Sequence record: NZ_MK262712.1
Length of the DNA: 64,000 bases
Reading direction: 5' to 3' (one strand)
DNA from: a plasmid
Every line of letters starts with the position of its first letter. The stretch's first letter is position 1. Below, piece by piece: positions 18,510-33,561 of the stretch. The translations under genes were made by a program, and so were the position numbers. The notes below the pieces were generated by a model. That model worked only from the letters and a program-made list of their open reading frames with translations, had not been told where the DNA came from and searched no databases.

Positions 18510-20627
18510 TTAAACTAGGCTTCTGATTAAATCTTTATACAAAGAATTTAATTCAGAGATATCGTTTATTTTTTTAAAATAAACACCATCAAAGCCTAGA
18601 GGTTTATCAATGCCATAACCGACACAAACAATATCTATGCCATGTTTTTTAGCATTTTTAACTGCTGAGCATACATCATCTATTGATTCAGATGGGTCAC
18701 CATCAGTCGCAATAAAGATAACTTTACGTGAGAAATTCAAACGTGAGAAATATTCCACGCATGAATTAATCGCTGTCGCAGTTGGGGTATGTAATCCGCT
18801 AGAAACATTTTCGTAATTTGAAAAGCAACTAGATACAGATTTATTAAAAAACTTAAGTATATCTATATAACCTTCTTTTTGAACTGGATAAACAAGATCA
18901 GCAACATCAATATTGTTCACCGATTCACAAGCAAGGGTAAATGCAAGATTTGCTTTTAAGGCTAAAACTGATACGTCATGCATTGATACAGAGATATCAC
19001 GCAGGTTTATTACACCTACATCAGACCTTTTGTATCCCTCCCCGTATTTCTTAAACACAGAGGTTGCACCCATAGGTACTTCAACAAGCTTTCTACTATG
19101 AATACGAGATCCACGATCAGTTAGCCTGTTGTTACGCCGTACAGTTTGCTTATTTAAAGAAGAAAGTAACTTTCTTAGCTCACGAGAGTGAGCTAGAGCA
19201 TTATTATAGTCCTCCTCGGTCAGAGTGATAAAACCAAAACGAAAACCAAAGTTTTGAATTTCAGCATCACTGAAAGAAGATGCCATTTGAGATATGGATT
19301 TTTTTATAGCTTCATGAAAATCATGAGAATTATCCTGTTCAGCCTCTGTGTCTAGGTATTCATCAAGATCTTCAATCGCCTTTCTTAATTGCGCTGGTGA
19401 GAAACTTTGTGTTGTACGTGCAGAAGTTACAGAACCATCAGAACCATCAGAACCATCAGAACCGTCAGAGCCATCAGAGCCATCAGAGCCATCAGAGCCG
19501 TCAGAGTCATCAGAGCCGTCAGAGTCATCAGAGCCGTCAGAGTCATCAGAGCCGTCAGAGCCGTCAGAGTCATCAGAGCCGACAGAGTCATCAGAGCCGT
19601 CAGAGTCATCAGAGCCGTCAGAGCCGTCAGAGTCATCAGAGCCGTCAGAGCCGTCAGAGCCGTCAGAGTCATCAGAGCCGTCAGAGCCGTCAGAGCCGTC
19701 AGAGTCATCAGAGCCGTCAGAGCCGTCAGAGTCGTCAGAGTCATCAGAGCCGTCAGAGCCGTCAGAGTCATCAGAGTCATCAGAGCCGTCAGAGTCATCA
19801 GAGCCGTCAGAGTCATCAGAGTCATCAGAGTCATCAGAGTCATCAGAGTCATCTAATCGGTTTTGTTCTTCTTTATCTTTTAGATCATCACGTAACTTTT
19901 CTAGTTCTTCATATAGTTTCAATCCTAACTCACATGCCATAAGAGTTGAATTAACCCCTGTGGCTTCGAGAATCAAAGAATCAAAACGGTCTTTCATGTC
20001 GAATAGAACAGTATCAGCAAGAGCAAAAAAATCATTCAATATTTCAGGAACGCCTTCTTGCCCAAGCTGATTTACACGAAGCTTGTTTAAAATATACATT
20101 TCAATGTAGGAAACGATATTAGAACCGTCACCAGTCATGTTTCCATCACTAACCATAAACGAATACATTTCAGCAAGCATTACTTTTGAAAGCGGAAACT
20201 GATTACCAGTTTTCTCTTCCATCTGAATGTCTTCGAAGAGGTTAATAGAACGATGAAGCCTCTTAAGTTTTATTTCCGCTTTTTTCTCCTCTTCTTTAGA
20301 GGAAAAACTAGCGGTTCCGTCAGGCATTATACATTCGAAGCCAGGTTGTTTTGATAAATATTCATTTTCAAAATCAACAGTAGTTTCGATTTCTGTATAA
20401 CGATTATGACCACCTTCATGACATATCCAGCCGCTACATAGCTTCCAGTATTTGTCATTACTAAAGTCACCGTTTGGTAAAAAAATAGTTTTAGATCTCA
20501 TGTTAATGCATGGTGTTGCATGTGGCCCCAAAAAAAGAACATTGAGTTCAGGATCAGCACCAATCACACGAGCAAGATTATCTACAGCCAACTTACTACG
20601 AATAGAATTGTTTAGCTTAATAGTCAT
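18510..20627 (-). CDS. Three-part protein: an N-terminal putative HExxH metallopeptidase-like domain, a central acidic (SDDSDG)n linker, and a C-terminal von Willebrand factor A (vWA) domain. It resembles CobT/DUF2201-like proteins.
   Basis: 705 aa. It has a WICHEGGHNRYTE HExxH motif, about 140 aa of D/S/G repeats, and C-terminal VIFIATDGDPSE…DIVCVGYGID, which is vWA-like. An AAA+ ATPase gene lies two genes upstream. Confidence 0.6.
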   Translation of the reverse strand: MTIKLNNSIRSKLAVDNLARVIGADPELNVLFLGPHATPCINMRSKTIFLPNGDFSNDKYWKLCSGWICHEGGHNRYTEIETTVDFENEYLSKQPGFECIMPDGTASFSSKEEEKKAEIKLKRLHRSINLFEDIQMEEKTGNQFPLSKVMLAEMYSFMVSDGNMTGDGSNIVSYIEMYILNKLRVNQLGQEGVPEILNDFFALADTVLFDMKDRFDSLILEATGVNSTLMACELGLKLYEELEKLRDDLKDKEEQNRLDDSDDSDDSDDSDDSDGSDDSDGSDDSDDSDGSDGSDDSDDSDGSDGSDDSDGSDGSDGSDDSDGSDGSDGSDDSDGSDGSDDSDGSDDSVGSDDSDGSDGSDDSDGSDDSDGSDDSDGSDGSDGSDGSDGSDGSDGSDGSVTSARTTQSFSPAQLRKAIEDLDEYLDTEAEQDNSHDFHEAIKKSISQMASSFSDAEIQNFGFRFGFITLTEEDYNNALAHSRELRKLLSSLNKQTVRRNNRLTDRGSRIHSRKLVEVPMGATSVFKKYGEGYKRSDVGVINLRDISVSMHDVSVLALKANLAFTLACESVNNIDVADLVYPVQKEGYIDILKFFNKSVSSCFSNYENVSSGLHTPTATAINSCVEYFSRLNFSRKVIFIATDGDPSESIDDVCSAVKNAKKHGIDIVCVGYGIDKPLGFDGVYFKKINDISELNSLYKDLIRSLV
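19429..19857. repeat. Intragenic 9-bp tandem repeat array of about 47 units (GAGCCGTCA / GAGTCATCA / GAACCATCA). It encodes the acidic Asp/Ser/Gly linker of the vWA protein.
   Basis: The tandem periodicity is visible directly in the sequence. ORFs open in all six frames across it. Confidence 0.9.
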
Positions 20628-20690: not shown

Positions 20691-21767
20691 TCAAAAATTA
20701 AATGGAGTCGAGAAAGTTACTTTTTTCTGGACTACATCATTATTTGAGACCGGAGTTATCGAAGAATTAGATGTCTTAGCAGGAATACCATTTCCAGTAA
20801 AAGGATCAACGAAAATGGAACCAGTATTATTAGCCAAATTATCATCTAAATCGTTAAAACGATTTTTAATTTCGGCAATAAAACCTGTTACAAGATCGTC
20901 ACCATCCATAATTCTGTTCAAACGATTCGTATCACTTAGCAGTAATAACCATTCGCGAAACAAACTCATGTGAAGGGGGGAATCCAAATTACCAGAAGGA
21001 AGATGGTTTAGTACGCTTTGGATAGAGTCAGCAATTTTAGTTGCACGATCATCCAAAAACATAAAACTCACAACCTTATCTTTTAAATTTGACAGTTTTT
21101 CTACGAAAGTCTGGTCAATTTTAGGTTTTGTGCAGGAAGCATAGATAGATTCAGCAGTCAGAGCAATATCCTGTATTAAACCAACTGAATAGCGGTCTCC
21201 TAAATCCTCTCCATCAATTGACATTGGTGTGAAAGGGATTGGATGGCTAATCTGGAAAAGAAACGATTTTTCGAAGTCATCTTTAGTCATTCTTAATTTT
21301 TCAATTAATTCTGCCAATTTAGGACTTCTGTCTTTTTCCATCTGAATGTATTCTTCATAACGCTCTAGAGCATTCTGAATGCCTTCCTTGAAATATTCTC
21401 GGACGGCCTCTACTTCAATCAAATACTCTTCCAACTTAGAGGTTGGCAGTATATTCATGGAGCTGAAAGGAATGCAGTATTTACGTTTGAGATTACTCAA
21501 TCTTGTATGAACAGCGCTTTTAAAGTTCAAAGCCTTAGTAGAAATCCATTGGACTTCAACCTTACTCACACTCGATTGGTCCGATACTTCATCTTCATCA
21601 AGAAACTGTCGAATTTCATTCGTTCTACGGCGACCCTGACATCCTTCGACATCTACCTTAATAATAACGGCACCATCTTGTAATTCAGGATTGCGGTCGA
21701 TGAAACTTTTTACAGTGTTACTGATTTGAGTGGTATCAGCAATAGCAGCGATTTTGATATTAGCCAT
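20691..21767 (-). CDS. Hypothetical protein (358 aa) lying between the AAA+ ATPase and vWA genes. It is a possible adaptor or partner of that pair.
   Basis: ORF. Palindrome copy at 20714. Confidence 0.45.
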   Translation of the reverse strand: MANIKIAAIADTTQISNTVKSFIDRNPELQDGAVIIKVDVEGCQGRRRTNEIRQFLDEDEVSDQSSVSKVEVQWISTKALNFKSAVHTRLSNLKRKYCIPFSSMNILPTSKLEEYLIEVEAVREYFKEGIQNALERYEEYIQMEKDRSPKLAELIEKLRMTKDDFEKSFLFQISHPIPFTPMSIDGEDLGDRYSVGLIQDIALTAESIYASCTKPKIDQTFVEKLSNLKDKVVSFMFLDDRATKIADSIQSVLNHLPSGNLDSPLHMSLFREWLLLLSDTNRLNRIMDGDDLVTGFIAEIKNRFNDLDDNLANNTGSIFVDPFTGNGIPAKTSNSSITPVSNNDVVQKKVTFSTPFNF

Positions 21768-21824
21768 GATATTTCTCCAGTATGCACCGGAAAAATATCT
21801 CCCAAAGGGAAAATATTTCCCGGT

Positions 21825-21835
21825 GGGGGGGGGGG
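21825..21835. repeat. Homopolymeric G11 tract in the 95-bp gap between the AAA+ ATPase gene's stop and the 358-aa gene's start.
   Basis: CGGTGGGGGGGGGGGTAGG, counted directly in the sequence. Confidence 0.9.
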
Positions 21836-21862
21836 TAGGTAAAATTTAAATAAACGTATCAA

Positions 21863-22915
21863 TTACAATTGTGAAATTGAACGTGATACTTCTTCCGGGA
21901 AAAGTTGCTCAAGCAAAATTTCAGCTTTACTACATGCTTCAGAAGATAACTTAGACGTGAATGCAATTTTAAACCCAACAGAAATTTCTTCATCAAGGAC
22001 TTTGGAGGTAGAAATCCATGAAATCAATTCACGAATATCCATCACCAGTTCGTCATCTTTCAGATTGTTAAGTTCAAAAGCAACTTTTGCAAACATTCTT
22101 AAACATGAAGGTTTCAAATCAGGAAAATGAGCCTCAGCTGCACAATACATAGCTTGTTCATCAGGTCGAATCATCGGCAATATTAAAAAACGCTTAATAA
22201 ATGCAGAGTCTTGGGACTGTGATGAAGCGAAACGCATATCCTCTCCACTCATGTTAGTGTTAGCTGTACCAATAAAGCGGGTGTAGCGATTTGCATAAAT
22301 CAACTCGCCACCTTCTTTACCGGTTGCCCACGGTTTACGCTCAAGCGGCATATGAAGCTTAGCTGCCGTATCTGGGTTTATTTTATCTATCTCATCAAGA
22401 AGAATGATATGCCCATCACGATAGCCTTGCACAAGGTCACTATAAACATACCGTGTATTTCCATTTTCTAGCGTTCTCATACCTTCAAGATCATCAATCG
22501 ATAACTCATTGTTGATTTGTTTGATGGTGATAGGCCAGTTCAGCATATGGCTGATATATAATGCTAACTCCGTTTTACCAGATCCAGATTCTCCTTGCAG
22601 GCAGATGCCAGCAGTTACTTCATTATTTAAAAGTAACTTCACCATACGGCGTAGAGTGATCGGATTTGGACGATATTTACTGTTTAACGGAGCACGAAAA
22701 GGAGTAACTCTTTTGAAAATAGGTATAACGTCATTTTCTCCAAAACAGTCAACATTAAAGTGCTCGTTTGCACGGACAATAATGTATTCCTCTTCATCTT
22801 GATATTCTATAGCCTTGGTTAACTCATGAGGTTCGAAATATTTAATTTCTAAGTCAGAGTTAACATTCAAAGTTAGAATTTTTGCATTGTTGTTAGCAGT
22901 AGTAGCGGGTGTCAT
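21863..22915 (-). CDS. AAA+ ATPase of the MoxR/AAA_5 (CbbQ/NorQ/CobS-like) type.
   Basis: Walker A GESGSGKT and Walker B ILLDEID motifs. About 350 aa, a typical MoxR-like size. Confidence 0.7.
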   Translation of the reverse strand: MTPATTANNNAKILTLNVNSDLEIKYFEPHELTKAIEYQDEEEYIIVRANEHFNVDCFGENDVIPIFKRVTPFRAPLNSKYRPNPITLRRMVKLLLNNEVTAGICLQGESGSGKTELALYISHMLNWPITIKQINNELSIDDLEGMRTLENGNTRYVYSDLVQGYRDGHIILLDEIDKINPDTAAKLHMPLERKPWATGKEGGELIYANRYTRFIGTANTNMSGEDMRFASSQSQDSAFIKRFLILPMIRPDEQAMYCAAEAHFPDLKPSCLRMFAKVAFELNNLKDDELVMDIRELISWISTSKVLDEEISVGFKIAFTSKLSSEACSKAEILLEQLFPEEVSRSISQL

Positions 22916-22942
22916 ATATAACTCCGTTGGATATTTATGAAA

Positions 22943-23779
22943 TTAAAGGTTTTTGATAATGGCTTTCGAAGTGCTGAAAAGTAATCCGTAATCAAAACCG
23001 TATACATGAGATATTACCTTACATGCATCGGAATATAACCACTCAACATAATCCACAGCTTCGGTTTTAAGAACATAAGAATCGGTATTCTGATCCAAAG
23101 TCCAGGCACCATTTTCACTTAGATTTTCAAGGATAATCATTTGCTCATCGAAAATCTTTTTAAAGAGTTTCAATCTGTCAGCTATTGACCATTTAATGAT
23201 CAATGATCTCCTTGTATAACAATATCTATCATCTAAGAAATCTGACCATTTAATCGGGCCTATAATAGGATGAGAAAATGTTAAGTTGTCAGTTTCTAAA
23301 GATTTAATAAGATCTTGCCTTGACTCTCTTGAACGTATTGCAAGAAGAAGTCTTGACTTAATAAAATCAATAATTTCATCTGGGTCATATCCGAAGCGAT
23401 GACACACAATTTGAAATTGTTTAGTACAATACCAATCTAACTCCAATTTTAATTTCGGTGTTAGATATCGAAACCCATTGGCATCAATTTTATAGACCAT
23501 CGATTGGTCTATATGGTACTGAACGGTTACAAAAGATGACTCCATTATTTTATAGAAGAACGTACATATATGTTCATCTGTCCAAATGAAATCATCTAGC
23601 TCTTGATAATCATGGTTCGGTACTTTGTTACCATGATCTTCAACTATTGAGTTTGATTCCACAGGTATATATACCTTTTCTTTAATTCCATCATCCTCAA
23701 AGAAGAATCTGAAACTAAGTTGGTTTTCATTCTCAATCTTTCTTAATTTACTACTTAAATGCATGATAGGTTTCTCCAT
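22943..23779 (-). CDS. Hypothetical protein (278 aa).
   Basis: ORF only. Confidence 0.4.
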   Translation of the reverse strand: MEKPIMHLSSKLRKIENENQLSFRFFFEDDGIKEKVYIPVESNSIVEDHGNKVPNHDYQELDDFIWTDEHICTFFYKIMESSFVTVQYHIDQSMVYKIDANGFRYLTPKLKLELDWYCTKQFQIVCHRFGYDPDEIIDFIKSRLLLAIRSRESRQDLIKSLETDNLTFSHPIIGPIKWSDFLDDRYCYTRRSLIIKWSIADRLKLFKKIFDEQMIILENLSENGAWTLDQNTDSYVLKTEAVDYVEWLYSDACKVISHVYGFDYGLLFSTSKAIIKNL

Positions 23780-23825
23780 AGGAGAAACCCAAATGGGATT
23801 TCTCCCAATAGGGGTTAAAAAATTA

Positions 23826-24179
23826 TTAACGTGTTAAGAACCTTGAACCGCCGAAACCTTCAATAGGCTTAGGAGCTCGGTGAATCAATTTCTGGGCCTG
23901 GACTCTAACAACCGTCAATTCACCAGAGTGAACTTTATCAGTCACCAGACAACCAGTTATCATCAGGTTATCGCCTCGAATAATCTCTTTAAACTCCTTA
24001 TCATACAGGTCTTGAGGTATTTTCACTTGGATCGATGAAACTACCATTTCTATTTTACCATTTCTTTCCATTTCCTGTTTGTTATCCAGTATTAGCATAA
24101 TAGTGTCATATTCATTACGAACAATCACCTTATTAACCTCGCCGGAAACGCAAACAGTATTTATGTGATTTGTAAACAT
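23826..24179 (-). CDS. Small OB-fold-like protein. It may be a single-strand DNA-binding (SSB-like) protein.
   Basis: 117 aa. The beta-rich pattern NTVCVSGEVNKVIVRNEYDTIMLILDNKQ…GKIEMVV…LMITGCLVTD resembles an SSB/PriB OB fold. Weak. Confidence 0.3.
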   Translation of the reverse strand: MFTNHINTVCVSGEVNKVIVRNEYDTIMLILDNKQEMERNGKIEMVVSSIQVKIPQDLYDKEFKEIIRGDNLMITGCLVTDKVHSGELTVVRVQAQKLIHRAPKPIEGFGGSRFLTR

Positions 24180-24189
24180 GTTAGGCCTC

Positions 24190-24230
24190 TTTTAAAAAAC
24201 AAAAAGAGACCCAAAAGGAGTCTCTTTTTC
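24190..24230 (-). terminator. Rho-independent terminator after the 342-aa gene.
   Basis: On the minus strand, hairpin AGAGACTCC-TTTTGG-GTCTCT followed by TTTTTGTTTTTT. Confidence 0.55.
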
Positions 24231-24323
24231 TCCTTATGGATGTGTGATTAAACAAAATTTAGAAGATGATACCTTTTTATAAAGGACAACTTTTATAGTT
24301 GAACTCCATGAATAAGATAAGTA

Positions 24324-25352
24324 TCAATTATAGCCAATGAAGTTCATAATAGTTGAGATTCCGAAATAGAGAATGGCAACACAAGCAGCACCTTTCAGTA
24401 CTCTTGATACCGTATTATCATATCCCTTTACAAAACTATTATTTTCTACAGCTTTAATTTCTTGAGCTTGATTTGTTTCCATAGCTGCTTTAGCTTTCAT
24501 TTCATCATCTTTCAATGATGCTTCAAGTTTAAGCAGTCGTGGCATTAAATCTGCAACTACAAAATCAAAACTATTTACTTTGTGAATCATCATCTCGTTA
24601 AATGATAAGTCATAGTATTTGTCTTGAAGCCCGAATTCACTCATCAAAGGCTTCAATTTACCATAAAGGTCATTGAGGTCCTCATGACGAGATTCAACGG
24701 TCTCAACAAAGTGCTGACGTTTATAAAAAACATGCACCTCATCAATAACCATATCAAGCCATTGACTTACTTTAACAGCACCCAGCTTGGTCAGTTTATC
24801 TTTACCGAAGTGAAGAGACTCTGAAGTAACAATGGAGCTGATATTCAACTCAACAAGCTTTTCATCAAGAGATGATAAAAAAGCTTCGAGCGTTTTTTCA
24901 CGTGGGATGTCGGGAAATTCTTCAAGAAGTTGTTCAGCCTCATCGAGGTTGATCTCATTAATGAAGACATCACCAACATTCACGCTGTAAATCACAGAAC
25001 GTTCACAACCAACTAAATGCTTCAGTTTAGAACTTTCTTCAAGCGCCTTTAACTCAATTACACGGCTGACAGATTCTGTCATATACCAGATGTAACTCTT
25101 ATCGTCATCGGTGCCTTTTTCTATTTTACAAATATCACTGCCAGTATTCGATGGTGGAATTTCTTCACCATAAAACGCTTTGGAATAAGCCATCAAAATT
25201 GAATCTTTCTCAATTTTGTCAGCAGCCGGGCGTGACGGTTTAGCACTGGTGGCGGTTTTAGCACGTGTTGGGGTTTTAGCTTTGGGTTTAGCAGTAGTAG
25301 CAGTAGTCATTTTATATACCTTTAAGTTTAGAATTAAATCCGGAAAAACCAT
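24324..25352 (-). CDS. Hypothetical protein (342 aa) with a basic Ala/Lys/Thr/Pro-rich N-terminus and a C-terminal transmembrane anchor.
   Basis: ORF with a C-terminal hydrophobic helix. Confidence 0.4.
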   Translation of the reverse strand: MVFPDLILNLKVYKMTTATTAKPKAKTPTRAKTATSAKPSRPAADKIEKDSILMAYSKAFYGEEIPPSNTGSDICKIEKGTDDDKSYIWYMTESVSRVIELKALEESSKLKHLVGCERSVIYSVNVGDVFINEINLDEAEQLLEEFPDIPREKTLEAFLSSLDEKLVELNISSIVTSESLHFGKDKLTKLGAVKVSQWLDMVIDEVHVFYKRQHFVETVESRHEDLNDLYGKLKPLMSEFGLQDKYYDLSFNEMMIHKVNSFDFVVADLMPRLLKLEASLKDDEMKAKAAMETNQAQEIKAVENNSFVKGYDNTVSRVLKGAACVAILYFGISTIMNFIGYN

Positions 25353-25643
25353 TTACGCAGTTTATTTAGAAATTGGCGAAAGCCGTCGTTTATCACCCTG
25401 AAGCAACAAACCGCCTGAGTTTATACTTTTCTGGCATTAGAAAGTCCGTAGAAAGTTACTTTTTGAAAGCAATTTAACTACGAGTTGTGGTAAGACAGAT
25501 GTGAGTTATCGCACCAGCGCCATTCTTTTGGAAAGAGGCTCTGGTGTCGAAACTCAAAATTGAGCTACCCATTTATGGATATCTTAGAAGGTATAAAGGT
25601 ATTAAAAGTAAAACTATTGAGAAATTTATACATCAACCCTGTA

Positions 25644-27467
25644 TCATTGTAAACACATATCTTCACTTCCCTCAATAATTGGTATTTCTTCAGCTAACTC
25701 AACTACTTTCGGGAACGACTCAGTGATAAACTCTGACGGTTTCCCATGCCAGGTAATGTAAAGCTCAAGCTCTGCCCTTGTCATCCCAACAAAAAATAAA
25801 CGACGCTCCTCTTCTATCCCTTCATCACCGATAACCTTCGGTGAGGGTATTTGGTCGTGGTTGCAGTTGATGATTAGTACTTTTTTCCATTCCAGTCCTT
25901 TGGAACCATGGAGCGTGCAGAGACAGATTCCACTTTGCTCTGTTTCACTAGATTCCACTTTGTTACCCATGGTCATGCCAGCTGCAATATTTAGCATCTT
26001 AAGCCATCCATCTTTCATTGCCCAACGGTAGCATGACATTAAAGAAATCCGGGTTACTGACGAATCACCTTTCGTATTGGACATCTTGTATCCGGCCATT
26101 TCTAACCATTCTTTAATTTTTTTAAAACGGTTTTCAATTTCTTCTTTGACTCGTGTATCAGTCATCATCGGTGCCATGTGCTTGTGTAGGGTTTTGGTAA
26201 GGACTGATGCATCAGGAGGTAAATCAGTTTGTTGAAAAGTAACTTTTTTGGAACTCATATGCTTCCACACTGTGTCCAAAACTTGTTCATCCTCATTGAG
26301 GAAAGATAGAACTCGTTTCATCAGACCGATGTTACCTGGCTGTCGGAAAAAGGAGAACAGATGGAGAATGTTACTTGGCTCTAATCCCTCCCAGAAGGAT
26401 TTTCCCCCTATCCTCGTAACCGGAACTTCAAGATAACTTTCCATTTTGTCGAGTGTCGTGTTGTTTCGGCTTAAAATCGCCCAATCATGAGGGTTTTTCT
26501 CCACCAGCTCCTTGATCACATCAAATTGGTCGTCTGCCTTATCCGATCTTATAAAAGTTACTTTTCCTTTATCCCCATTTCTGCCTGACACGAGACTCTT
26601 TTCATAGCGGGCTTTGTTCTTTCTGATCACTGTATCAGCAAATTTAAGGATCAATGGTGCACACCTGAAACATTTGGTCAGGTGAAAAACGTTAGGATTA
26701 TATGCTTTATCAAACTGACGAAAGATCTTAACTCCACCTGCATCTCTGAAACTGTATATTGTCTGGTCATCATCGCCTACGATTGTGGTGTTGATGCCCC
26801 TCTTTGCGTGCTCAGATATCCAAGTGAATTGAATACCATCGGTGTCCTGTACTTCATCAACAATCAGATGAGTAATACTTAAAGGCCTCATCTTATCGGC
26901 ACTCAACATGCCCACTACATACTTTGAAAGTGAGTTAAAATCTGCAACATTATCCTTTTTGCAAAAGCTCATGTACTCGTTGTAGAACGCCACCTGGTCG
27001 CGTGTATATTTAATCCTGATAATGTCCGGGTTAAGCTCCCGGCCAATGCCGTCGATGAATGGCATTATGTCGTTCACACTTTCATGGTAGTTAAGATGTT
27101 TTTGTACCCGTGATACCATCGCCATTTGTTTGTGTCCGATTAGAAGCCCTCCTTTCCAACCGGTCTGGTTTACCATTTTTTTTATAAAACCGTGAAAGGT
27201 ATCGACCTCTATACGGTTGAGAAACCTCGGCTCTATCATTTTCTGGAGGCTATTTTTTAAAGAGTCTGTGGCCGCACGGGTAAAGGTTACCAGGGATACC
27301 CGGGCCAATGGATGACGTTGAAAAATGGCTTTTGTTCCCTCCTTCATGGTGAAGGATTTGCCACTCCCTGGACAGGCAATGACCATCGTGTTTTTATCCA
27401 TATTTTGTATAACACGCTCTTGTTCTTCTGTACTCGATGACATCTTAGCTCCTTCCTGTTCCGGCAT
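25644..27467 (-). CDS. UvrD/REP-family superfamily-1 DNA helicase.
   Basis: 607 aa. Motif I VIACPGSGKSFTM, motif II LIVDEVQDTD, and late motifs …CTLHGSKGLEWKKVLI…. Confidence 0.8.
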   Translation of the reverse strand: MPEQEGAKMSSSTEEQERVIQNMDKNTMVIACPGSGKSFTMKEGTKAIFQRHPLARVSLVTFTRAATDSLKNSLQKMIEPRFLNRIEVDTFHGFIKKMVNQTGWKGGLLIGHKQMAMVSRVQKHLNYHESVNDIMPFIDGIGRELNPDIIRIKYTRDQVAFYNEYMSFCKKDNVADFNSLSKYVVGMLSADKMRPLSITHLIVDEVQDTDGIQFTWISEHAKRGINTTIVGDDDQTIYSFRDAGGVKIFRQFDKAYNPNVFHLTKCFRCAPLILKFADTVIRKNKARYEKSLVSGRNGDKGKVTFIRSDKADDQFDVIKELVEKNPHDWAILSRNNTTLDKMESYLEVPVTRIGGKSFWEGLEPSNILHLFSFFRQPGNIGLMKRVLSFLNEDEQVLDTVWKHMSSKKVTFQQTDLPPDASVLTKTLHKHMAPMMTDTRVKEEIENRFKKIKEWLEMAGYKMSNTKGDSSVTRISLMSCYRWAMKDGWLKMLNIAAGMTMGNKVESSETEQSGICLCTLHGSKGLEWKKVLIINCNHDQIPSPKVIGDEGIEEERRLFFVGMTRAELELYITWHGKPSEFITESFPKVVELAEEIPIIEGSEDMCLQ

Positions 27468-27733
27468 AAATCATGTCACATTCAGGAAAGAATTTTCTGA
27501 AATAGAGGCTGTTTTTCGTTTTATCTTCAGTATTTTGTATCATTGACTGCTCCCCGCCCAGAATGTACTGCACCTTTACTCAGTTGGAGTTCAACTTTTG
27601 GGATGCAGTTCAAAACAGGGCGAGGATTCCAACCCGCACGGGACGAGATTTCTAGGGAACTTAACTGATAAAAGCACCTTTAAAAGCACTCTTAAGCGTG
27701 CTATAATTGAGACTCTGAACAGGAGGTTTTTTT

Positions 27734-27982
27734 ATGGCATTTCAGGTACTAACCACTACTGCAGCAAGCATCACAGAGCTTAAACGTGATCCTATGGGCA
27801 CTTTCAATGCAGGAGAAGGTGCCCCTGTAGCCATACTGAATCGCAACGAACCCGCTTTTTACTGTGTACCGCCTGCTCTGTATGCTCAACTGATGGAGCT
27901 TCTTGAAGATCAGGAGCTGGGTCGTATTGCTGATGAGCGAATTGGTGAGGCGGTAATCGAGGTCAGTCTAGATGACTTATAA
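27734..27982 (+). CDS. stbD: Phd/YefM-family antitoxin (StbD-like).
   Basis: 82 aa, overlapping the toxin gene. Its N-terminus fits the YefM fold. Confidence 0.75.
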   Translation: MAFQVLTTTAASITELKRDPMGTFNAGEGAPVAILNRNEPAFYCVPPALYAQLMELLEDQELGRIADERIGEAVIEVSLDDL

Positions 27983-28256
27983 GCTGGCCTTTAATGAATC
28001 AGCTCTGAAAGAATGGAAAAAATTGGGCCATACCATTCGGGAACAATTCAAAAAGAAGCTCGCTGAGCGCCTGTTGAACCCACGGGTGCCCGCATCGCAA
28101 CTACATGGACGCAAAGACCAATACAAAATAAAGCTCCGTGGCGCAGGCTACCGACTGGTTTACAGTGTCAACGATGATGTTGTGACGGTCACCGTAATTG
28201 GCGTCGGTAAACGTGAGAATGATGATATTTACAATTTAACCAAACACAGAAATTAA
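27972..28256 (+). CDS. stbE: RelE/ParE-family toxin (StbE-like).
   Basis: 94 aa with a RelE-like pattern …YRLVYSVNDDVVTVTVIGVGKRENDDIY. Confidence 0.75.
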   Translation: MTYKLAFNESALKEWKKLGHTIREQFKKKLAERLLNPRVPASQLHGRKDQYKIKLRGAGYRLVYSVNDDVVTVTVIGVGKRENDDIYNLTKHRN

Positions 28257-28261
28257 GAGCC

Positions 28262-29690
28262 CATTCGTTCAGGTATTTAGTCACAAAAACAATCTTTACA
28301 TGTAATAAATAGTCGGAATACCGACTTCTGTTTATTTCCTGCACCTGTTGACTCCGTGATATATATATGGTTATTTATACAGGTTGTCTCAATACACTCT
28401 GAATGCAAAATGCTAATCCAGAAAGCGTATAAATACAGACTCAACCCGACAGATGCACAGGCGCAACGACTGCGTCAGATGTGCGGCTGCGCCCGTTTTG
28501 TCTGGAATTACGCCCTGGCAGAGACGCAGCGTATTCTTGAGGCCGGACAAAAACTCCCTTCCGCCTTTGAGCTGAATAAAATGCTGACAGGATGGAAGAA
28601 ATTACCTGACCTGGCGTTTTTATCTGATGCCTACACCGACAACCTTCAGCAGAAACTGAAAGACCTGCACGGGGCATGGATACGGTGCTTTGATAAAAAA
28701 CTGGCAGCGAAAGCGCCCGTGTTCAAACGTAAAACCCACGGCAATGATTCCGTTCGTTTCGTCAATTTTGACAAATACTGCCAGCTTGAGTACAGACGCG
28801 TTAAGTTACCCTCGGGGCTGGGCTGGGTGACATTCCGGCAGTCCCGGGCCGTTGTGGGTAAAATCAAAAACGCAACGGTCAGCCAGCACGCTGGCGGCTG
28901 GTATATCTCGTTTCAGGTAGAAATGGAGGTCGAACAGCCCGCGCACCCGTCAACGTCTGCTGTCGGCCTGGATGCCGGTATCTGCAAGCTGGTAACGCTG
29001 TCAGACGGCACGGTGTTTGAACCTGTCAACAGTTTTAAACAGAACCAAAGCAGACTGGCAAGGTTACAGCGCCAGCTTGCCCGTAAAGTGAAATTCAGCG
29101 CAAACTGGAAGAAGCAGAAAGCAAAAATTTCCCGCTTACACGCGCATATCACCAATATCCGCCGCGATTACCTTCATAAAGTCACGACAACAATCAGCAA
29201 AAACCACGCGATGATCGTTATTGAAGATTTGAAGGTTTCCAACATGGCGAAATCGGCAGCGGGTACGGCAGACGAGCCGGGGCGCAACGTTACGGCAAAA
29301 TCAGGTCTTAACCGGGCGATACTGGATCAGGGCTGGTACGAAATGCGCCGCCAGCTCGAATATAAGCAGCGATGGCGCGGCGGTGAGGTGCTGGCAGTAA
29401 ATCCGGCCTACACCAGCCAGAAATGCGCCTGCTGTGGTCATACCTCGAAGGAAAACCGTCAATCGCAGGCCACATTTGTCTGCGTGGCGTGTGGATACGA
29501 AGCGAATGCTGATGTAAACGGCGCTTGTAATATTTTAGCGGCAGGACATGCCGTACTTGCCTGTGGAGGGACGGTGCAGTCAGTCCGCCCGATGAAGCAG
29601 GAACCTGGCACTGAGCGATCAGTCGTCACCCACTAATGGGAATCCCCCTCCTGAATCGCGCAGCGTGAAGGTGGGGAGGATGTCAAATTC
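28262..29690 (+). mobile_element. IS200/IS605-family element lacking tnpA (an IS1341-like derivative). It has the left end, tnpB and a right end that encodes the omega-RNA scaffold.
   Basis: The left end keeps only about 50 bp of the tnpA 5' end when compared with the second copy at 30555. The right-end motif GGGAATCCCCCTCCTGAATCGCGCAGCGTGAAGGTGGGGAGGATGTCAA is shared with copy 2. Confidence 0.7.
28410..29636 (+). CDS. tnpB: TnpB RNA-guided endonuclease (IS605 OrfB family), copy 1.
   Basis: [14 protein letters not shown]… has a RuvC-like fold and CxxC…CxxC zinc finger. It is about 97% identical to copy 2 until the C-terminus diverges. Confidence 0.85.
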
Positions 29691-29900
29691 CGTATAACAC
29701 GTTCTTGTTCTTCAGTACTTGATTACATCTTAATTCCCTTATGTTCCTGCATAAATCATTTCACATTCAGGAATTATTTTTGGAAATATAGGCTTTTTAG
29801 TTTTTTTCATGATTTTTTCCTCGTCACCGGTAGCTCAAGTTAACAGCCTCCCCCTCTCTGAAGAAGGGCGAGGATTACCACTTCAACGCAACCTACCTAA
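29690..29900. other. Diverged duplicate, about 80% identical, of the helicase gene's 5' end and upstream region (27403-27660). It lies immediately 3' of the TnpB copy-1 right end.
   Basis: Aligning by eye, GTATAACACGTTCTTGTTCTTCAGTACTTGATTACATCTTA… (29696-) matches GTATAACACGCTCTTGTTCTTCTGTACTCGATGACATCTTA… (27403-), and GGGCGAGGATTACCAC matches GGGCGAGGATTCCAAC. Confidence 0.7.
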
Positions 29901-29906
29901 ACCACA

Positions 29907-30116
29907 TTAAGCGGCTTTAGGGTTTACAGTCGCTCCGTGGGCTAATGTGATCAGCCCGACCGCTTTTATATTCTTCGCCGCATTTACGTCACTATCATGG
30001 TTAGCCCCACATTCAGGGCAAATCCATGACCTGACGTTAAGCGCCATTTTTGTCATGGTATAGACGCAACCGCTATAGCGTTTTGAGGACGGGAAAAACT
30101 GGTCAATGGCGACCAC
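29907..30116 (-). pseudogene. tnpB: C-terminal fragment of a third TnpB, carrying the zinc finger and RuvC-III region.
   Basis: …WICPECGANHDSDVNAAKNI… in a 69-aa ORF. Confidence 0.6.
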
Positions 30117-30209
30117 GGATCGCCCCGACCATCTTTTGTCTCAAAGGGTACTCCCACCGTGGCAGGCGGGAGGGGAATTTGAATTGACGCGCTAGCGTTA
30201 AAGGAACAT

Positions 30210-30608
30210 TTAGCCGCGCTGGTGCTGAATGTAGCGCTTTACGACTTCCAGCGGTGCTCCACCACATGACCCAACAAAGTAGCTGCGTGACCAGAGAACA
30301 GGCTTATTGTACGCCTCCCGCAAATCCAGAAATTCATTCCGTAGCCGCCGACTTGTGACGGCTTTCAGGCTGTTAACCAGTTTTGACAGTTGCACAGTTG
30401 GTGGGTATTCGACCAGCATGTGAACATGATCGGCTTCTCCGTCACATTCTTTCAGTACAGCACCGAAATCACCGCAAACTTCACCTGCATACTGATTTAC
30501 TTTTTCCAGATGTAACTCACCGAAAACTTTACGGCGGTACTTAGTCACAAAAACAATGTGAACATGTAATAAATAGGCAGAATGACGACTTCTGTTTATT
30601 TCCTGCAC
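30210..30608 (-). CDS. tnpA: IS200/IS605 TnpA (Y1 HUH transposase).
   Basis: 132 aa with the HVHMLV (HUH) motif and a catalytic Tyr region (…SRSYFVGSCGG). Confidence 0.85.
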   Translation of the reverse strand: MQEINRSRHSAYLLHVHIVFVTKYRRKVFGELHLEKVNQYAGEVCGDFGAVLKECDGEADHVHMLVEYPPTVQLSKLVNSLKAVTSRRLRNEFLDLREAYNKPVLWSRSYFVGSCGGAPLEVVKRYIQHQRG

Positions 30609-30673
30609 CTGTTGACTCCGTGATGTACATATGGTTATTTATACAGGTTATCTCAATACACACTGAATGCAAA

Positions 30674-31861
30674 ATGCTAATCCAGAAAGCGTATAAATAC
30701 AGACTCAATCCGACAGATGCACAGGCGCAACGACTGCGTCAGATGTGCGGCTGCGCCCGTTTTGTCTGGAATTACGCCCTGGCAGAGACGCAGCGTATTC
30801 TTGAGGCCGGACAAAAACTCCCTTCCGCCTTTGAGCTGAATAAAATGCTGACAGGATGGAAGAAATTACCTGACCTGGCGTTTTTATCTGATGCCTACAC
30901 CGACAACCTTCAGCAGAAACTGAAAGACCTGCACGGGGCATGGATACGGTGCTTTGATAAAAAACTGGCAGCGAAAGCGCCCGTGTTCAAACGTAAAACC
31001 CACGGCAATGATTCCGTTCGTTTCGTCAATTTTGACAAATACTGCCAGCTTGAGTACAGACGCGTTAAGTTACCCTCGGGGCTGGGCTGGGTGACATTCC
31101 GGCAGTCCCGGGCCGTTGTGGGTAAAATCAAAAACGCAACGGTCAGCCAGCACGCTGGCGGCTGGTATATCTCGTTTCAGGTAGAAATGGAGGTCGAACA
31201 GCCCGCGCACCCGTCAACGTCTGCTGTCGGCCTGGATGCCGGTATCTGCAAGCTGGTAACGCTGTCAGACGGCACGGTGTTTGAACCTGTCAACAGTTTT
31301 AAACAGAACCAAAGCAGACTGGCAAGGTTACAGCGCCAGCTTGCCCGTAAAGTGAAATTCAGTGCGAACTGGAAGAAGCAGAAAGCAAGAATTTCCCGCT
31401 TACATTCGCATATCGCCAACATCCGCCGCGATTACCTTCACAAAGTCACGACAACAATCAGCAAAAACCACGCGATGATCGTTATTGAAGATTTGAAGGT
31501 TTCCAACATGTCGAAATCGGCAGCGGGTACGGTAGACGAGCCGGGGCGCAACGTTGCGGCAAAATCAGGTCTTAACCGGGCGATACTGGATCAGGGCTGG
31601 TACGAAATGCGCCGCCAGCTCGAATATAAGCAGCGATGGCGCGGCGGTGAGGTGCTGGCAGTAAATCCGGCATATACCAGCCAGAAATGCGCGCGTTGCG
31701 GTCATACAGTAAAGGAAAATCGTCAATCGCAGGCAGTATTTGTCTGCGTGGCGTGTGGATACGAAGCGAACGCCGACATAAACGGCGCTCAAAATATTCT
31801 CGCGGCAGGACATGCCGTGTTGTCCGGGATTAACCCCGGACGCGCCCGTAAGGCGGCGTAA
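30674..31861 (+). CDS. tnpB: TnpB RNA-guided endonuclease, copy 2.
   Basis: Same N-terminus as copy 1; the C-terminus differs (…AGHAVLSGINPGRARKAA). Confidence 0.85.
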   Translation: MLIQKAYKYRLNPTDAQAQRLRQMCGCARFVWNYALAETQRILEAGQKLPSAFELNKMLTGWKKLPDLAFLSDAYTDNLQQKLKDLHGAWIRCFDKKLAAKAPVFKRKTHGNDSVRFVNFDKYCQLEYRRVKLPSGLGWVTFRQSRAVVGKIKNATVSQHAGGWYISFQVEMEVEQPAHPSTSAVGLDAGICKLVTLSDGTVFEPVNSFKQNQSRLARLQRQLARKVKFSANWKKQKARISRLHSHIANIRRDYLHKVTTTISKNHAMIVIEDLKVSNMSKSAAGTVDEPGRNVAAKSGLNRAILDQGWYEMRRQLEYKQRWRGGEVLAVNPAYTSQKCARCGHTVKENRQSQAVFVCVACGYEANADINGAQNILAAGHAVLSGINPGRARKAA

Positions 31862-31905
31862 GCCGTTAAGCGAGGAACCGGGCAATGCGGTAACGCGTTG
31901 CTACC

Positions 31906-33023
31906 CTACAAAGGGAATCCCCTTCCTGATTCACGTAGTGAGAAGGTGGGGGAGGATGTCAAGTAGCTGAACATTTCCAGGAACGATATTGCAGCGCCTG
32001 AGATGTTCAGCCAGAGTTGCCCTTGACTGACCATGGCGTTGGTTCGTTTCATGCTCGCTTCGAAGAGTTGGTAATCTGCGGCGATACCCAACGACTTGCG
32101 ATACTGCAGCACACCTTTATCTATTTGGTTGAGGACAAAAGCCCCTGTGGTGATATCGTGAGCCTGACCAGCGCTTCCAAAAAGCGAAGACGCCACACCT
32201 TGCAGAAAGTCACTTTTTTGTCCTGACTCTTCTTTAGCCGATTCAACAAACTGATTCATCTGCCCTATACGTTTCATGATAGATACGCCCAGGCGTCGGA
32301 ACAGGATGCATACTGCAGTCCGGTGGATGTCACCATGTGGACGCTGGCCGTCTTCAGGCTGTTTGTCGTCATTGAATCCATCACCGTTTCTATTGAACCA
32401 AGATCAGTGACATAGATTTCATTTAACGCCACCCCTCTTAGTGGGGTCTGAACCTCTGAGTCCTGGGTCGTTTTAATACAATCGCGTGCAATAGACTGGA
32501 TGATTCTGCAGACATCAAAGGCGACAGGTTTTTCACTCCCGCTCATCGTATTCGGGAAAGCCTGACAGAACCCACTGGATTCCCCGCCCCACTCCATATA
32601 TTTGACCATTTTTGTCATTGGCCCCAGCGTCAGGCTGTCATCGAGCGTGTCAGTGACCTGCCCCACCGGCGTAAGCGGGTCAAACGCTGCTCGCCAGTCC
32701 GTAATTAGCCCGTGAAGTAATCCGGTTGTCAGTTAACCGGTTGACGCGATAAATAACGGTACATTGTCTATGTTCCTGACCTCCCCTGTTTTAACCGATT
32801 CCAGAGTGACATCGGCTTTAATGACGGGAATTGAATAGAACAGCAACCCCATTATCCAGCAGAAGATCGGGACTTCGTTTTTTGTGGGGGCAAGGACCCA
32901 CCGCAGGGATTTATAAAAAAGTCCAATTGCTGCTGCATATTCAGCAAATCTGAGCCATTCATTGGATCCGTGAGTGGAAATAATCAGCGCGATCCCGTAA
33001 AAGCCGTATAAACAAAATCGATA
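31906..33023 (-). pseudogene. Disrupted gene on the tra-operon strand. It has a hydrophobic N-terminal segment followed by a soluble domain and may be a TraG- or TraH-like mating-pair gene. It carries an in-frame TAA at 32733-32735 and a frameshift near 32275, and its 3' end is truncated by the IS605 right end.
   Basis: I translated the minus strand by hand. Segment A (33023-32736) reads …GIALIISTHGSNEWLRFAEYAAAIGLFYKSLRWVLAPTKNEVPIFCWIMGLLFYSIPV…. After the stop it continues in the same frame (…LTPVGQVTDTLDDSL…), then shifts frame into the 31906..32277 ORF, whose last codons lie inside the TnpB right end. Confidence 0.45.
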
Positions 33024-33561
33024 TCACTAATGGTATATATAGTAAAGTTGCTCATTTACCCCCCTACACTGTATTGAGGGTAGCTGACCTCTATTAGATA
33101 CGTTGAATCTATGCCGAAAACGACGTCTCATGTTGAGTTTGAAAGTTGCATTAAATCGACTCCTGACAGTACTACTGGGAAAAGTAACTCTTCTAAAAAA
33201 GTTACTTTTTGGTAGTTTCTCCTCGAAGGTTTCGAGGCATGGTGTAAAGCACTTATGCCTCCTGGTAGAAGGTTCACTTTTTTCTCGCCATACAAACAAT
33301 TAACAACGCTGAGTATCTTTCTATGTCTTATCATCTTTTCAGCCCATTGGTGCAATCTATATATTTTCACATAGTTGAATTTTATTTCTTCCAAATAAGG
33401 GTAGGGAAAATCGAAAAAGTTGATTTTTTTTTGGACAGGTATATTTTCAACTTTAACGCCTGTTTTTGAGTTTGGTTACTCAGATGTCCAACCGAAAAAT
33501 AGTATCTTGCACGTGCATAATTTTATGAAATAATGATGGAAACAACCACTGGGGCATTTCA

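Follow-up and report, generated by a model that had tools for sequence, protein, structure and literature searches.

Insertion sequences (IS) of the IS605 type, exemplified by ISEc41 and by an element labelled 'ISKpn41like' in OV141394.1, carry divergent genes for a Y1 HUH transposase (tnpA) and for TnpB, have subterminal hairpins rather than inverted repeats, and insert 3' of a fixed tetranucleotide. In ISDra2, the RNA bound by TnpB comes from the 3' end of tnpB and the right end of the element, with its last ∼16 nt supplied by flanking DNA, and the complex cuts motif-flanked matches, normally the empty donor site (PMC8612924). Double mismatches within guide positions 1–12 abolish this cleavage (PMC10097598). 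Work on engineered F plasmids indicates that a conjugative plasmid with TnpB can displace or exclude sibling plasmids in which the site is empty, natural guides not being identified in that study (Mears et al., bioRxiv 10.1101/2025.02.20.638934). Here, we describe a nest of IS605-type elements, with two main copies (copy 1 and copy 2), in a 64,000-nt stretch of plasmid record NZ_MK262712.1 (the window, to which all positions refer unless another record is named). The nest probably holds relics of sibling plasmids that were joined by IS–IS recombination, which would have left the guides of both TnpBs fixed on sibling alleles; its function we infer by analogy.

The nest has the divergent tnpA/tnpB arrangement, its IS right end finishes TCAA, as in IS608, and identity to ISEc41 at the DNA level is 76% along the entire element. 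Unlike ISEc41, copy 1 is missing its left end and tnpA and is therefore immobile, and copy 2 is a mosaic of a copy-1-like 5' part and an ISEc41-like 3' scaffold. Homology to ISDra2 TnpB (PMC8612924, PMC10097598) is full-length (E = 1.5e-45) and includes the D-E-D triad and the zinc finger. As in ISDra2, the right-end flank is the expected source of the guide, such that an empty site would consist of the motif followed by the guide. The motif itself differs, being CCAT in the nest (as judged from insertion sites) and TTGAT in ISDra2, and the nest TnpB has a ∼15-aa insertion after the catalytic Glu. Moreover, the empty sites of the nest lie on alleles of other plasmids, not on a sister copy of the same replicon.

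The setting resembles that studied by Mears et al. (bioRxiv 10.1101/2025.02.20.638934), in that the transfer region of a large conjugative plasmid has IS605 elements in a conserved neighbourhood, with predicted guides that match insertion-free siblings. Unlike in that system, guides and targets are natural and can be named, being known from sequence alone, and the flanks that supply the guides do not come from an interrupted gene of the plasmid itself but are relics of another lineage. Klebsiella megaplasmids also carry CRISPR-Cas (PMC6965323), likewise an RNA-guided system on the same kind of large plasmid. In contrast to CRISPR-Cas, the nest lacks an array and does not acquire spacers, each TnpB having one guide set by insertion history. 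E. coli plasmid pA123_1 (L007; L and H numbers are our labels for sequences compared), a related plasmid, has this IS in an internally deleted form (L007 1716–3969), with csf2 (type IV) and a CRISPR array ∼600 bp away. The left flank of that copy is CCAT, and its guide, ATTTTGCAGGTTGCAA, differs from those of the nest.

RESULTS

The nest occupies a locus that is empty in sibling plasmids

The source plasmid belongs to a family of Klebsiella IncFIB/IncHI1B conjugative resistance plasmids. The window region 27300–32100 is 99.9% identical to CP041935.1, a 288-kb conjugative plasmid of Klebsiella pneumoniae (IncFIB/IncHI1B, MOBH). The nest, at no less than 80% of its length (≥80%), is found in 172–184 PLSDB records, the figure varying with the probe, and the plasmids that bear it are 99.6–100% identical. 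Both TnpBs are intact in most of the annotated records, and ∼170 plasmids carry the nest together with an intact resident helicase gene (the A allele, labelled ATP-dependent helicase in CP041935.1). This UvrD-like helicase gene lies on one side of the nest, on the minus strand; a lipoprotein gene and then traN (33562 onward) lie on the other.

In sibling IncFIB/IncHI1B plasmids (B-type), a 6-kb insert is absent from the helicase–lipoprotein interval. In NZ_CP058870.1 (L002) and NZ_CP106891.1 (L003), 280 bp separate the helicase gene from the lipoprotein gene, which traN follows, and their backbone aligns with window positions 21394–27522 and again from 33523 onward. The original prediction, made from the window alone, had proposed a comparison with plasmids lacking the insertion, and these two provide it. 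In the window plasmid, ∼6 kb of accessory DNA have accumulated between the helicase and lipoprotein/traN genes: a phd/relE pair, an immobilised copy 1, a 130-bp scrap of the B-type helicase gene (helicase B), an IS1341-like stump, a complete copy 2 and a traG pseudogene (Table 1). The nest is mostly recombination debris, and its elements are ordinary, already-annotated IS200/IS605 copies of a known kind. A second nest type (L004, L008 and L024; ∼110 records) has the same two IS copies with a prlF/yhaV relic in between. A 100-bp flank in L004, considered as the 3' end of a traG-like gene, proved to be this toxin–antitoxin relic.

Insertion occurs 3' of CCAT

CCAT directly precedes 13/13 independent left ends of the IS group, the base before it being variable. 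These are copy 2 of the window (GACCAT/CTTTTG, where the slash marks the element boundary), the L007 copy beside the type IV CRISPR array (TGCCAT/CTTTTG), ISEc41 in E. coli Nissle (AGCCAT/CCTTCC), and ten copies in Pantoea multigeneris and an Enterobacterales metagenome-assembled genome (...CCAT/CTT...). Two diverged variants are left out of this count, L004 copy 2 (CTAT) and L014, whose boundary is ambiguous. The left-end boundary of copy 2 was set by comparison with L007 and with the ten Pantoea and metagenomic copies. ISEc41 in E. coli Nissle 1917 lies directly upstream of ygiF (L006 1427–1430), whose start codon is complementary to the CAT within the CCAT target; because of this overlap, ygiF is cut off from its native upstream region.

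The same motif is found at the right-end junctions when these are read from insertion-free alleles. The uninterrupted B allele of the helicase gene has the sequence ...TTTATCCAT/ATTCCGTATAACACG, in which the slash corresponds exactly to 29686/29687 of the window, and the empty site is CCAT/ATTCCGTATAACACGT. Intact traG of NZ_CP137411.1 reads ACCAT/GTAGCTGAACATTTCC. At neither empty allele are bases duplicated, CCAT passing directly into the flank, as expected of IS605-type insertion, which does not duplicate its target. The chance of CCAT at the homologous position is ∼1/256 for each of the two genes. The suggestion that an ancestral insertion lay at a helicase-gene start is thus borne out, with the copy-1 right end abutting helicase 5' sequence exactly after CCAT. 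Because CCAT falls exactly at the break in the uninterrupted B allele and flanks all 13 left ends, we regard the copy-1 junction as the product of a genuine insertion 3' of CCAT, located at Met22 of the longer of the two helicase open reading frames (ORFs; start 27467), and all three surviving junctions as legitimate. The flanks of copy 2 are discordant (tnpB of the IS1341-like element, here termed IS-3, on the left, and traG on the right), and copy 1 lacks any left junction.

The helicase fragment beside copy 1 is a relic of a B-type helicase gene

Originally, 29696–29900 was held to be an ∼80%-identical paralogue of 27403–27660, the start of the resident helicase gene and its leader. When the alignment is made, about half of that length stands. 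Positions 29684–29804 match 27399–27522 with 81.5% identity over 124 nt (BLAST, E = 9e-27), and the local score of 130 compares with 16 ± 2 in shuffles, so the similarity is no artefact. Past 27522/29804, the extension to 27660/29900 fails, there being just a 16-nt motif, AGGGCGAGGATT-CCA, in common (score 25 versus 16 ± 2, reached by 1 of 300 shuffles). This motif belongs to a hairpin of IS right ends, of which it is one arm, and is found in both places.

The view of the fragment as a diverged paralogue of the resident gene does not hold. Identity to the B allele is 91–92% for L002/L003 (aligned over 29684–29816) and 92.5% for H53/H54, with a range of 91–92.5% when H53–H57 are included, ∼10 points nearer than the resident A allele; a segmental duplicate would be most similar to the resident copy. 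The relic encodes ERVIRN, as do B-type genes, and not ERVIQN. Its translation, M*SSTEEQERVIRN, has a stop as the second codon of the annotated ORF. Homology to the B allele begins exactly past the copy-1 terminus and ends at 29816. For reference, helicase A and the L002 B allele are 86–95% identical per 100 nt. As the relic is closer to the B allele and the B-lineage locus is empty, inter-plasmid recombination appears to have brought it in, and we interpret 29687–29816 as a decaying relic of the helicase gene of another backbone lineage.

On the right of copy 2 lies the traG pseudogene (traG'). It is frameshifted with an internal stop, according to a RefSeq note, and no traH homology was seen beyond its start. 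Its sequence is 88.6% identical to traG of the nest plasmid itself and 86.6% identical to the L025 traG. With only this degree of identity to real traG alleles, traG' seems to derive from a third traG allele or a stand-alone paralogue.

Predicted guides match sibling alleles and mismatch resident ones

By analogy to ISDra2, each TnpB would bind an omega-RNA, the final ∼16 nt of which would be copied from the DNA past the right end. The predicted copy-1 guide has a perfect CCAT-flanked match in L002, L003 and a total of 113 PLSDB records, and the predicted copy-2 guide has one in the L025 traG and in 114 PLSDB records. CP052325.1 is present in both sampled target lists, so at least some siblings bear both targets. 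Because both flanks come from sibling alleles, both guides would be fixed, one on CCAT plus helicase B and the other on CCAT plus traG.

The alleles of the carrier differ from these targets. The original prediction was that the copy-1 guide would be near-complementary to the resident helicase gene. Indeed, there is a CCAT-flanked 13/16 match at 27398–27417, and this version of the site, CCAT/ATTTTGTATAACACGC, occurs in 319 PLSDB records, but the mismatches, at guide positions 4, 5 and 16, are predicted to block cleavage. Against traG of CP041935.1 and NZ_MW013146.1, the copy-2 guide has mismatches at positions 1, 4, 13 and 16, the resident site being CCAT+ATAACTGAACATCTCG. The occupied sites have TCAA where empty sites have CCAT. 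Given the seed mismatches and the TCAA, we predict no self-cleavage and cleavage of B-type siblings: an incoming sibling would be cut, and the carrier would be safe from its own nucleases.

Identity between copies 1 and 2 is mosaic

All four parts of the nest named in the original prediction exist, namely TnpB copy 1, TnpB copy 2 with its divergent TnpA, a third TnpB C-terminal fragment and a common right end. That right end, ...GGAGGATGTCAA, finishes at 29686 in copy 1 and at 31962 in copy 2, and its terminus (...GGATGTCAA, ending GTCAA) is common to all 8 available copies of the IS group. When the 8 sequences are aligned, 87% of cells in the right-end helices pair, compared to ≤66% in slid controls, and two pairs are compensatory, which lends modest support to the structure; the scaffold architecture is kept across the 8 elements. 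Imperfect subterminal hairpins stand at left and right ends in place of inverted repeats. TnpA of copy 2 is intact, as predicted, covering the full Y1_Tnp profile and including the HVH motif and the C-terminal SYF tyrosine of Y1 HUH transposases. Copy 1 alone falls short in this respect, with 24 tnpA codons left in a remnant of 73 bp (rather than the ∼50 bp estimated before).

The two copies are also less alike than the ∼97% first given. BLAST of 28272–29686 against 30536–31962 yields 93.2% identity over 1430 nt, and this identity is unevenly spread, being 100% across 28455–29054, down to 87–90% by 29355–29554, and unalignable in the last ∼130 nt ahead of the common terminal hairpin. The TnpB proteins show 11 differences within the first 383 aa and have unrelated C-termini. 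The earlier statement that this is not a simple recent duplication was correct, the pattern being a mosaic with 600 nt at 100% beside an unrelated 3' module. Two types of 3' scaffold can be distinguished, one in copy 1, both L004 copies, L014 and L016, and the other in copy 2, L007 and ISEc41. Collectively, the discordant flanks, the 600-nt tract of complete identity and the two unrelated scaffolds point to recombination between IS copies.

Both TnpBs keep RuvC residues D188, E272 and D368 and two CxxC motifs (339, 358). The catalytic residues were assigned by alignment to ISDra2 TnpB, in which we take them to be D191, E278 and D361. Of these, D191 is known from a published D191A mutant.

The left end of copy 1 was lost differently in two lineages

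The left junction of copy 1 lies at a GGTAnTTAGT microhomology (28257–28280). Past relE, L004 reads GGTCTTTAGTTAT... and the window reads GGTATTTAGTCAC..., the latter leading directly into tnpA; copy-2 tnpA has GGTACTTAGTCAC at the corresponding place. In view of this microhomology at the relE/tnpA break, the loss of the copy-1 left end and tnpA looks like a microhomology deletion. L004 (8855–8980) lost the left end and tnpA elsewhere, the break falling directly after the left-flank CTAT and ∼12 codons remaining. Despite these different deletions, both lineages retain copy-1 tnpB and the right end.

Other features of the nest and its surroundings

The toxin–antitoxin pair beside copy 1 has a promoter-like site at 27679–27707. 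In a promoter and terminator scan of 27300–30700, that was the only such site, and there were fewer sites than in shuffles.

The third TnpB C-terminal fragment, in the place predicted, belongs to IS-3, which is ∼73% identical to stand-alone tnpB elements of Enterobacter and Klebsiella plasmids. With relatives only this close, a right-end terminus and target motif could not be fixed for IS-3. The 23-nt stretch at 29817–29839 matches neither the L002 leader nor IS-3 and lies outside the GTCAA-type terminus defined by L009/L010; it is either the outermost right end of IS-3 or lineage-specific leader sequence. A further IS1341-like right-end relic in the helicase-A leader is the source of the sole similarity to 29866–29881. 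It has the same orientation as IS-3 and lies at roughly equal distance from the helicase start, and hairpin arm AATCCTCGCCCT is present in both and not in L009/L010. This restricted distribution of the arm suggests that there may have been a single old IS1341-like insertion, predating the A/B split.

Related plasmids show further rearrangements. In pK5880C-HI3 (L005 8267–10705), IS66 is inserted into the IS-3 TnpB remnant, and window positions 29945–29952 align at both sides of it, consistent with an 8-bp target duplication. In Citrobacter youngae pCY-CTXM-15 (L026), copy-1 homology ends at window position 29605, within the scaffold region, and the helicase/toxin–antitoxin/TnpB block is only ∼1.7 kb away from full-length traG. 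This proximity indicates a large rearrangement, for which recombination via the traG pseudogene is a possible route. Elsewhere in the window (∼19430–19853), BLAST against L004 gives a ladder of overlapping matches with offsets in multiples of 9 nt, indicative of a tandem array of 9-nt period with a copy number that differs among plasmids.

Table 1. Coordinates of features in and around the nest
Feature	Position	Strand	Details
Resident UvrD-like helicase gene (A allele)	25644-27467	-	Pfam UvrD-helicase, UvrD_C; GenBank start 27443
Near-match to copy-1 guide in helicase A (codons ∼17-22)	27398-27417	+	CCAT/ATTTTGTATAACACGC; 13/16, mismatches 4, 5, 16
IS1341-like right-end relic in helicase-A leader	27543-27630	-	GGAATCCTCGCCC ... 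GGGCGGGGAGCAGTCAA/TGATAC; aligned with IS-3 and L009/L010 right ends
phd/yefM + relE toxin–antitoxin pair	27734-28256	+	phd/yefM 27734-27982, relE 27972-28256; between helicase gene and copy 1; not mentioned in the original prediction
IS copy 1	28272-29686	+	No left end; tnpA remnant, intact tnpA-tnpB intergenic region, tnpB, right end ...GGATGTCAA
Copy-1 tnpA remnant	28272-28344	-	73 bp, 24 codons
Copy-1 tnpB	28410-29636	+	Pfam OrfB_IS605, Cas12f1-like_TNB, HTH_OrfB_IS605
Sub-threshold RAGATH-18 match	29560-29603	+	First stem of predicted copy-1 omega-RNA scaffold, CCUGUGGAGGG...CCCGAUGAAGCAGGAA
Predicted copy-1 guide (16 nt)	29687-29702	+	ATTCCGTATAACACGT; position by ISDra2 analogy
B-type helicase relic	29687-29816	-	First ∼22 codons + ∼65 nt leader
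23-nt stretch	29817-29839		CCTCGTCACCGGTAGCTCAAG; between end of B-allele homology and IS-3 GTTAA terminus
IS-3 remnant (IS1341-like)	29840-30132	-	Right end ...GGGGGAGGCTGTTAA + TnpB C-terminus; truncated at CCAT (30129-30132) by copy-2 left end
Third TnpB C-terminal fragment	29907-30116	-	Cas12f1-like_TNB, E 2.5e-12
IS copy 2	30133-31962	+	Complete, 1830 bp; ISEc41-type 3' module + right end
Copy-2 left-end hairpin	30151-30172		Arms CTCCCACC...GGCGGGAG
Copy-2 tnpA	30210-30608	-	Full Y1_Tnp profile, E 2e-40
Copy-2 tnpB	30674-31861	+	Pfam OrfB_IS605, Cas12f1-like_TNB, HTH_OrfB_IS605
Predicted copy-2 guide	31963-31978	+	GTAGCTGAACATTTCC
traG' pseudogene	31963-33055	-	First ∼1.1 kb of traG up to start codon; interrupted by copy 2

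DISCUSSION

We propose the following history for the nest. Members of the IS group would have inserted 3' of CCAT at three places: codon 22 of a B-type helicase gene, the tnpB of an IS1341-like element sited in the helicase-B leader, and a point ∼1.1 kb into a traG allele. Homologous recombination among IS copies, in related plasmids or after cointegrate formation, would then have joined the pieces next to the A-type helicase locus, with only the DNA trapped between IS junctions surviving and the rest being deleted. Afterwards, copy 1 would have lost its left end and tnpA by microhomology deletion.

Several points weigh against this account or against the function that we attach to it. The predicted left junction, in which the body of helicase B runs through CCAT into the IS left end, is in 0 PLSDB records, nor was a nest-less A-type parent with a single IS found there. 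H167–H170, considered as single-IS parents, are actually L004-type two-copy nests, and a search for an uninterrupted site in which the left flank seen in L004 adjoins the traG flank also gave 0 records. L004-type plasmids hold the prlF/yhaV scrap and no helicase scrap, so backbone-gene guides are not a general property of these nests. CCAT as the TnpB motif is derived from insertion sites alone. The perfect guide matches follow from the B-type origin of the relics and are neither independent evidence nor a sign of selection; at 8% divergence, a mismatch-free 16 nt is expected ∼26% of the time, and with such an expectation we make no claim of selection on the guide. ISDra2 TnpB, the source of the seed rule, is only a distant homologue (E = 1.5e-45). 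Finally, the fold z-score of the copy-1 scaffold is –0.74, which is no thermodynamic signal of its own (copy 2, –3.92), and the sole Rfam match, to RAGATH-18 in that scaffold, is sub-threshold (28.4 versus a gathering threshold of 44.9 bits) and was not reproduced in L004, L006, L014 or L016.

Other explanations for the helicase junction fare poorly. Had the fragment arisen within the plasmid, by duplication of the 5' end of the resident helicase gene and later divergence, the copy-1 omega-RNA might cut or repress the resident gene 2 kb away, and the genuine similarity over 124 nt and the CCAT-flanked near-match are in keeping with this. However, the fragment is nearer to the B allele of other plasmids, the mismatches at guide positions 4 and 5 lie in the 12-nt region proximal to the transposon-associated motif, where double mismatches abolish cleavage by ISDra2 TnpB, and the ∼170 plasmids noted above retain the nest along with an intact helicase A. 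Repression by a nuclease-dead protein of the TldR type is ruled out by the intact RuvC triad in both copies, and its supposed target in the resident gene has seed mismatches. We therefore consider such a duplicate very improbable. That the junction is merely an endpoint of illegitimate recombination or deletion, falling in the helicase gene by coincidence, would fit with the missing copy-1 left end and with a matching left junction that is found nowhere, but the break comes exactly after the terminal ...GTCAA common to every copy and exactly after CCAT in the uninterrupted allele, as it does for copy 2 in traG. Coincidence on this scale is barely credible.

A third alternative accepts the junctions and adds selection, with copies 1 and 2 kept as fixed guides that destroy incoming or co-resident B-type IncHI1B siblings. 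It would account for the perfect matches of both guides, with the right motif, to conserved backbone genes of siblings while both resident alleles are seed-mismatched, for the retention of copy-1 tnpB, the region upstream of it and the right end in two lineages in which different deletions removed tnpA and the left end, and for the intact TnpBs in most annotated records; the engineered F plasmid offers an experimental precedent (bioRxiv 10.1101/2025.02.20.638934). On the other hand, with nest plasmids 99.6–100% identical, conservation is uninformative on selection, and the copy-1 guide in L004-type plasmids is prlF/yhaV scrap. IncHI1B sibling plasmids are already mutually incompatible, which makes any added benefit less obvious. 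All told, we think it unlikely that the guides were kept as a weapon, and equally hesitate to call the nest a CRISPR-independent plasmid exclusion system, one in which two TnpB/omega-RNA units, the first of them immobilised by the loss of its transposase and left end, would use rival-lineage guides to cut the helicase gene and traG of incoming B-type IncHI1B plasmids, the alleles of the carrier escaping by their seed mismatches. Under the history favoured here, recombination between IS copies on sibling plasmids, the sibling-directed guides may be an accident of that history or a selected advantage.

This work adds a CCAT target motif for the IS group and two exact predicted guides; these guides perfectly match conserved backbone genes of a sibling lineage (in 113 and 114 PLSDB records) and differ in the seed from the alleles of the carrier. 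More generally, relic flanks at the right ends of IS605 elements can serve as a record of earlier recombination among lineages of plasmids. For the idea that TnpB mediates competition between plasmids, the locus offers a concrete natural lineage pair and two target sites. If the exclusion reading were true, the nest would be a natural, lineage-specific case of TnpB 'anti-self defence', so far described only for engineered F plasmids.

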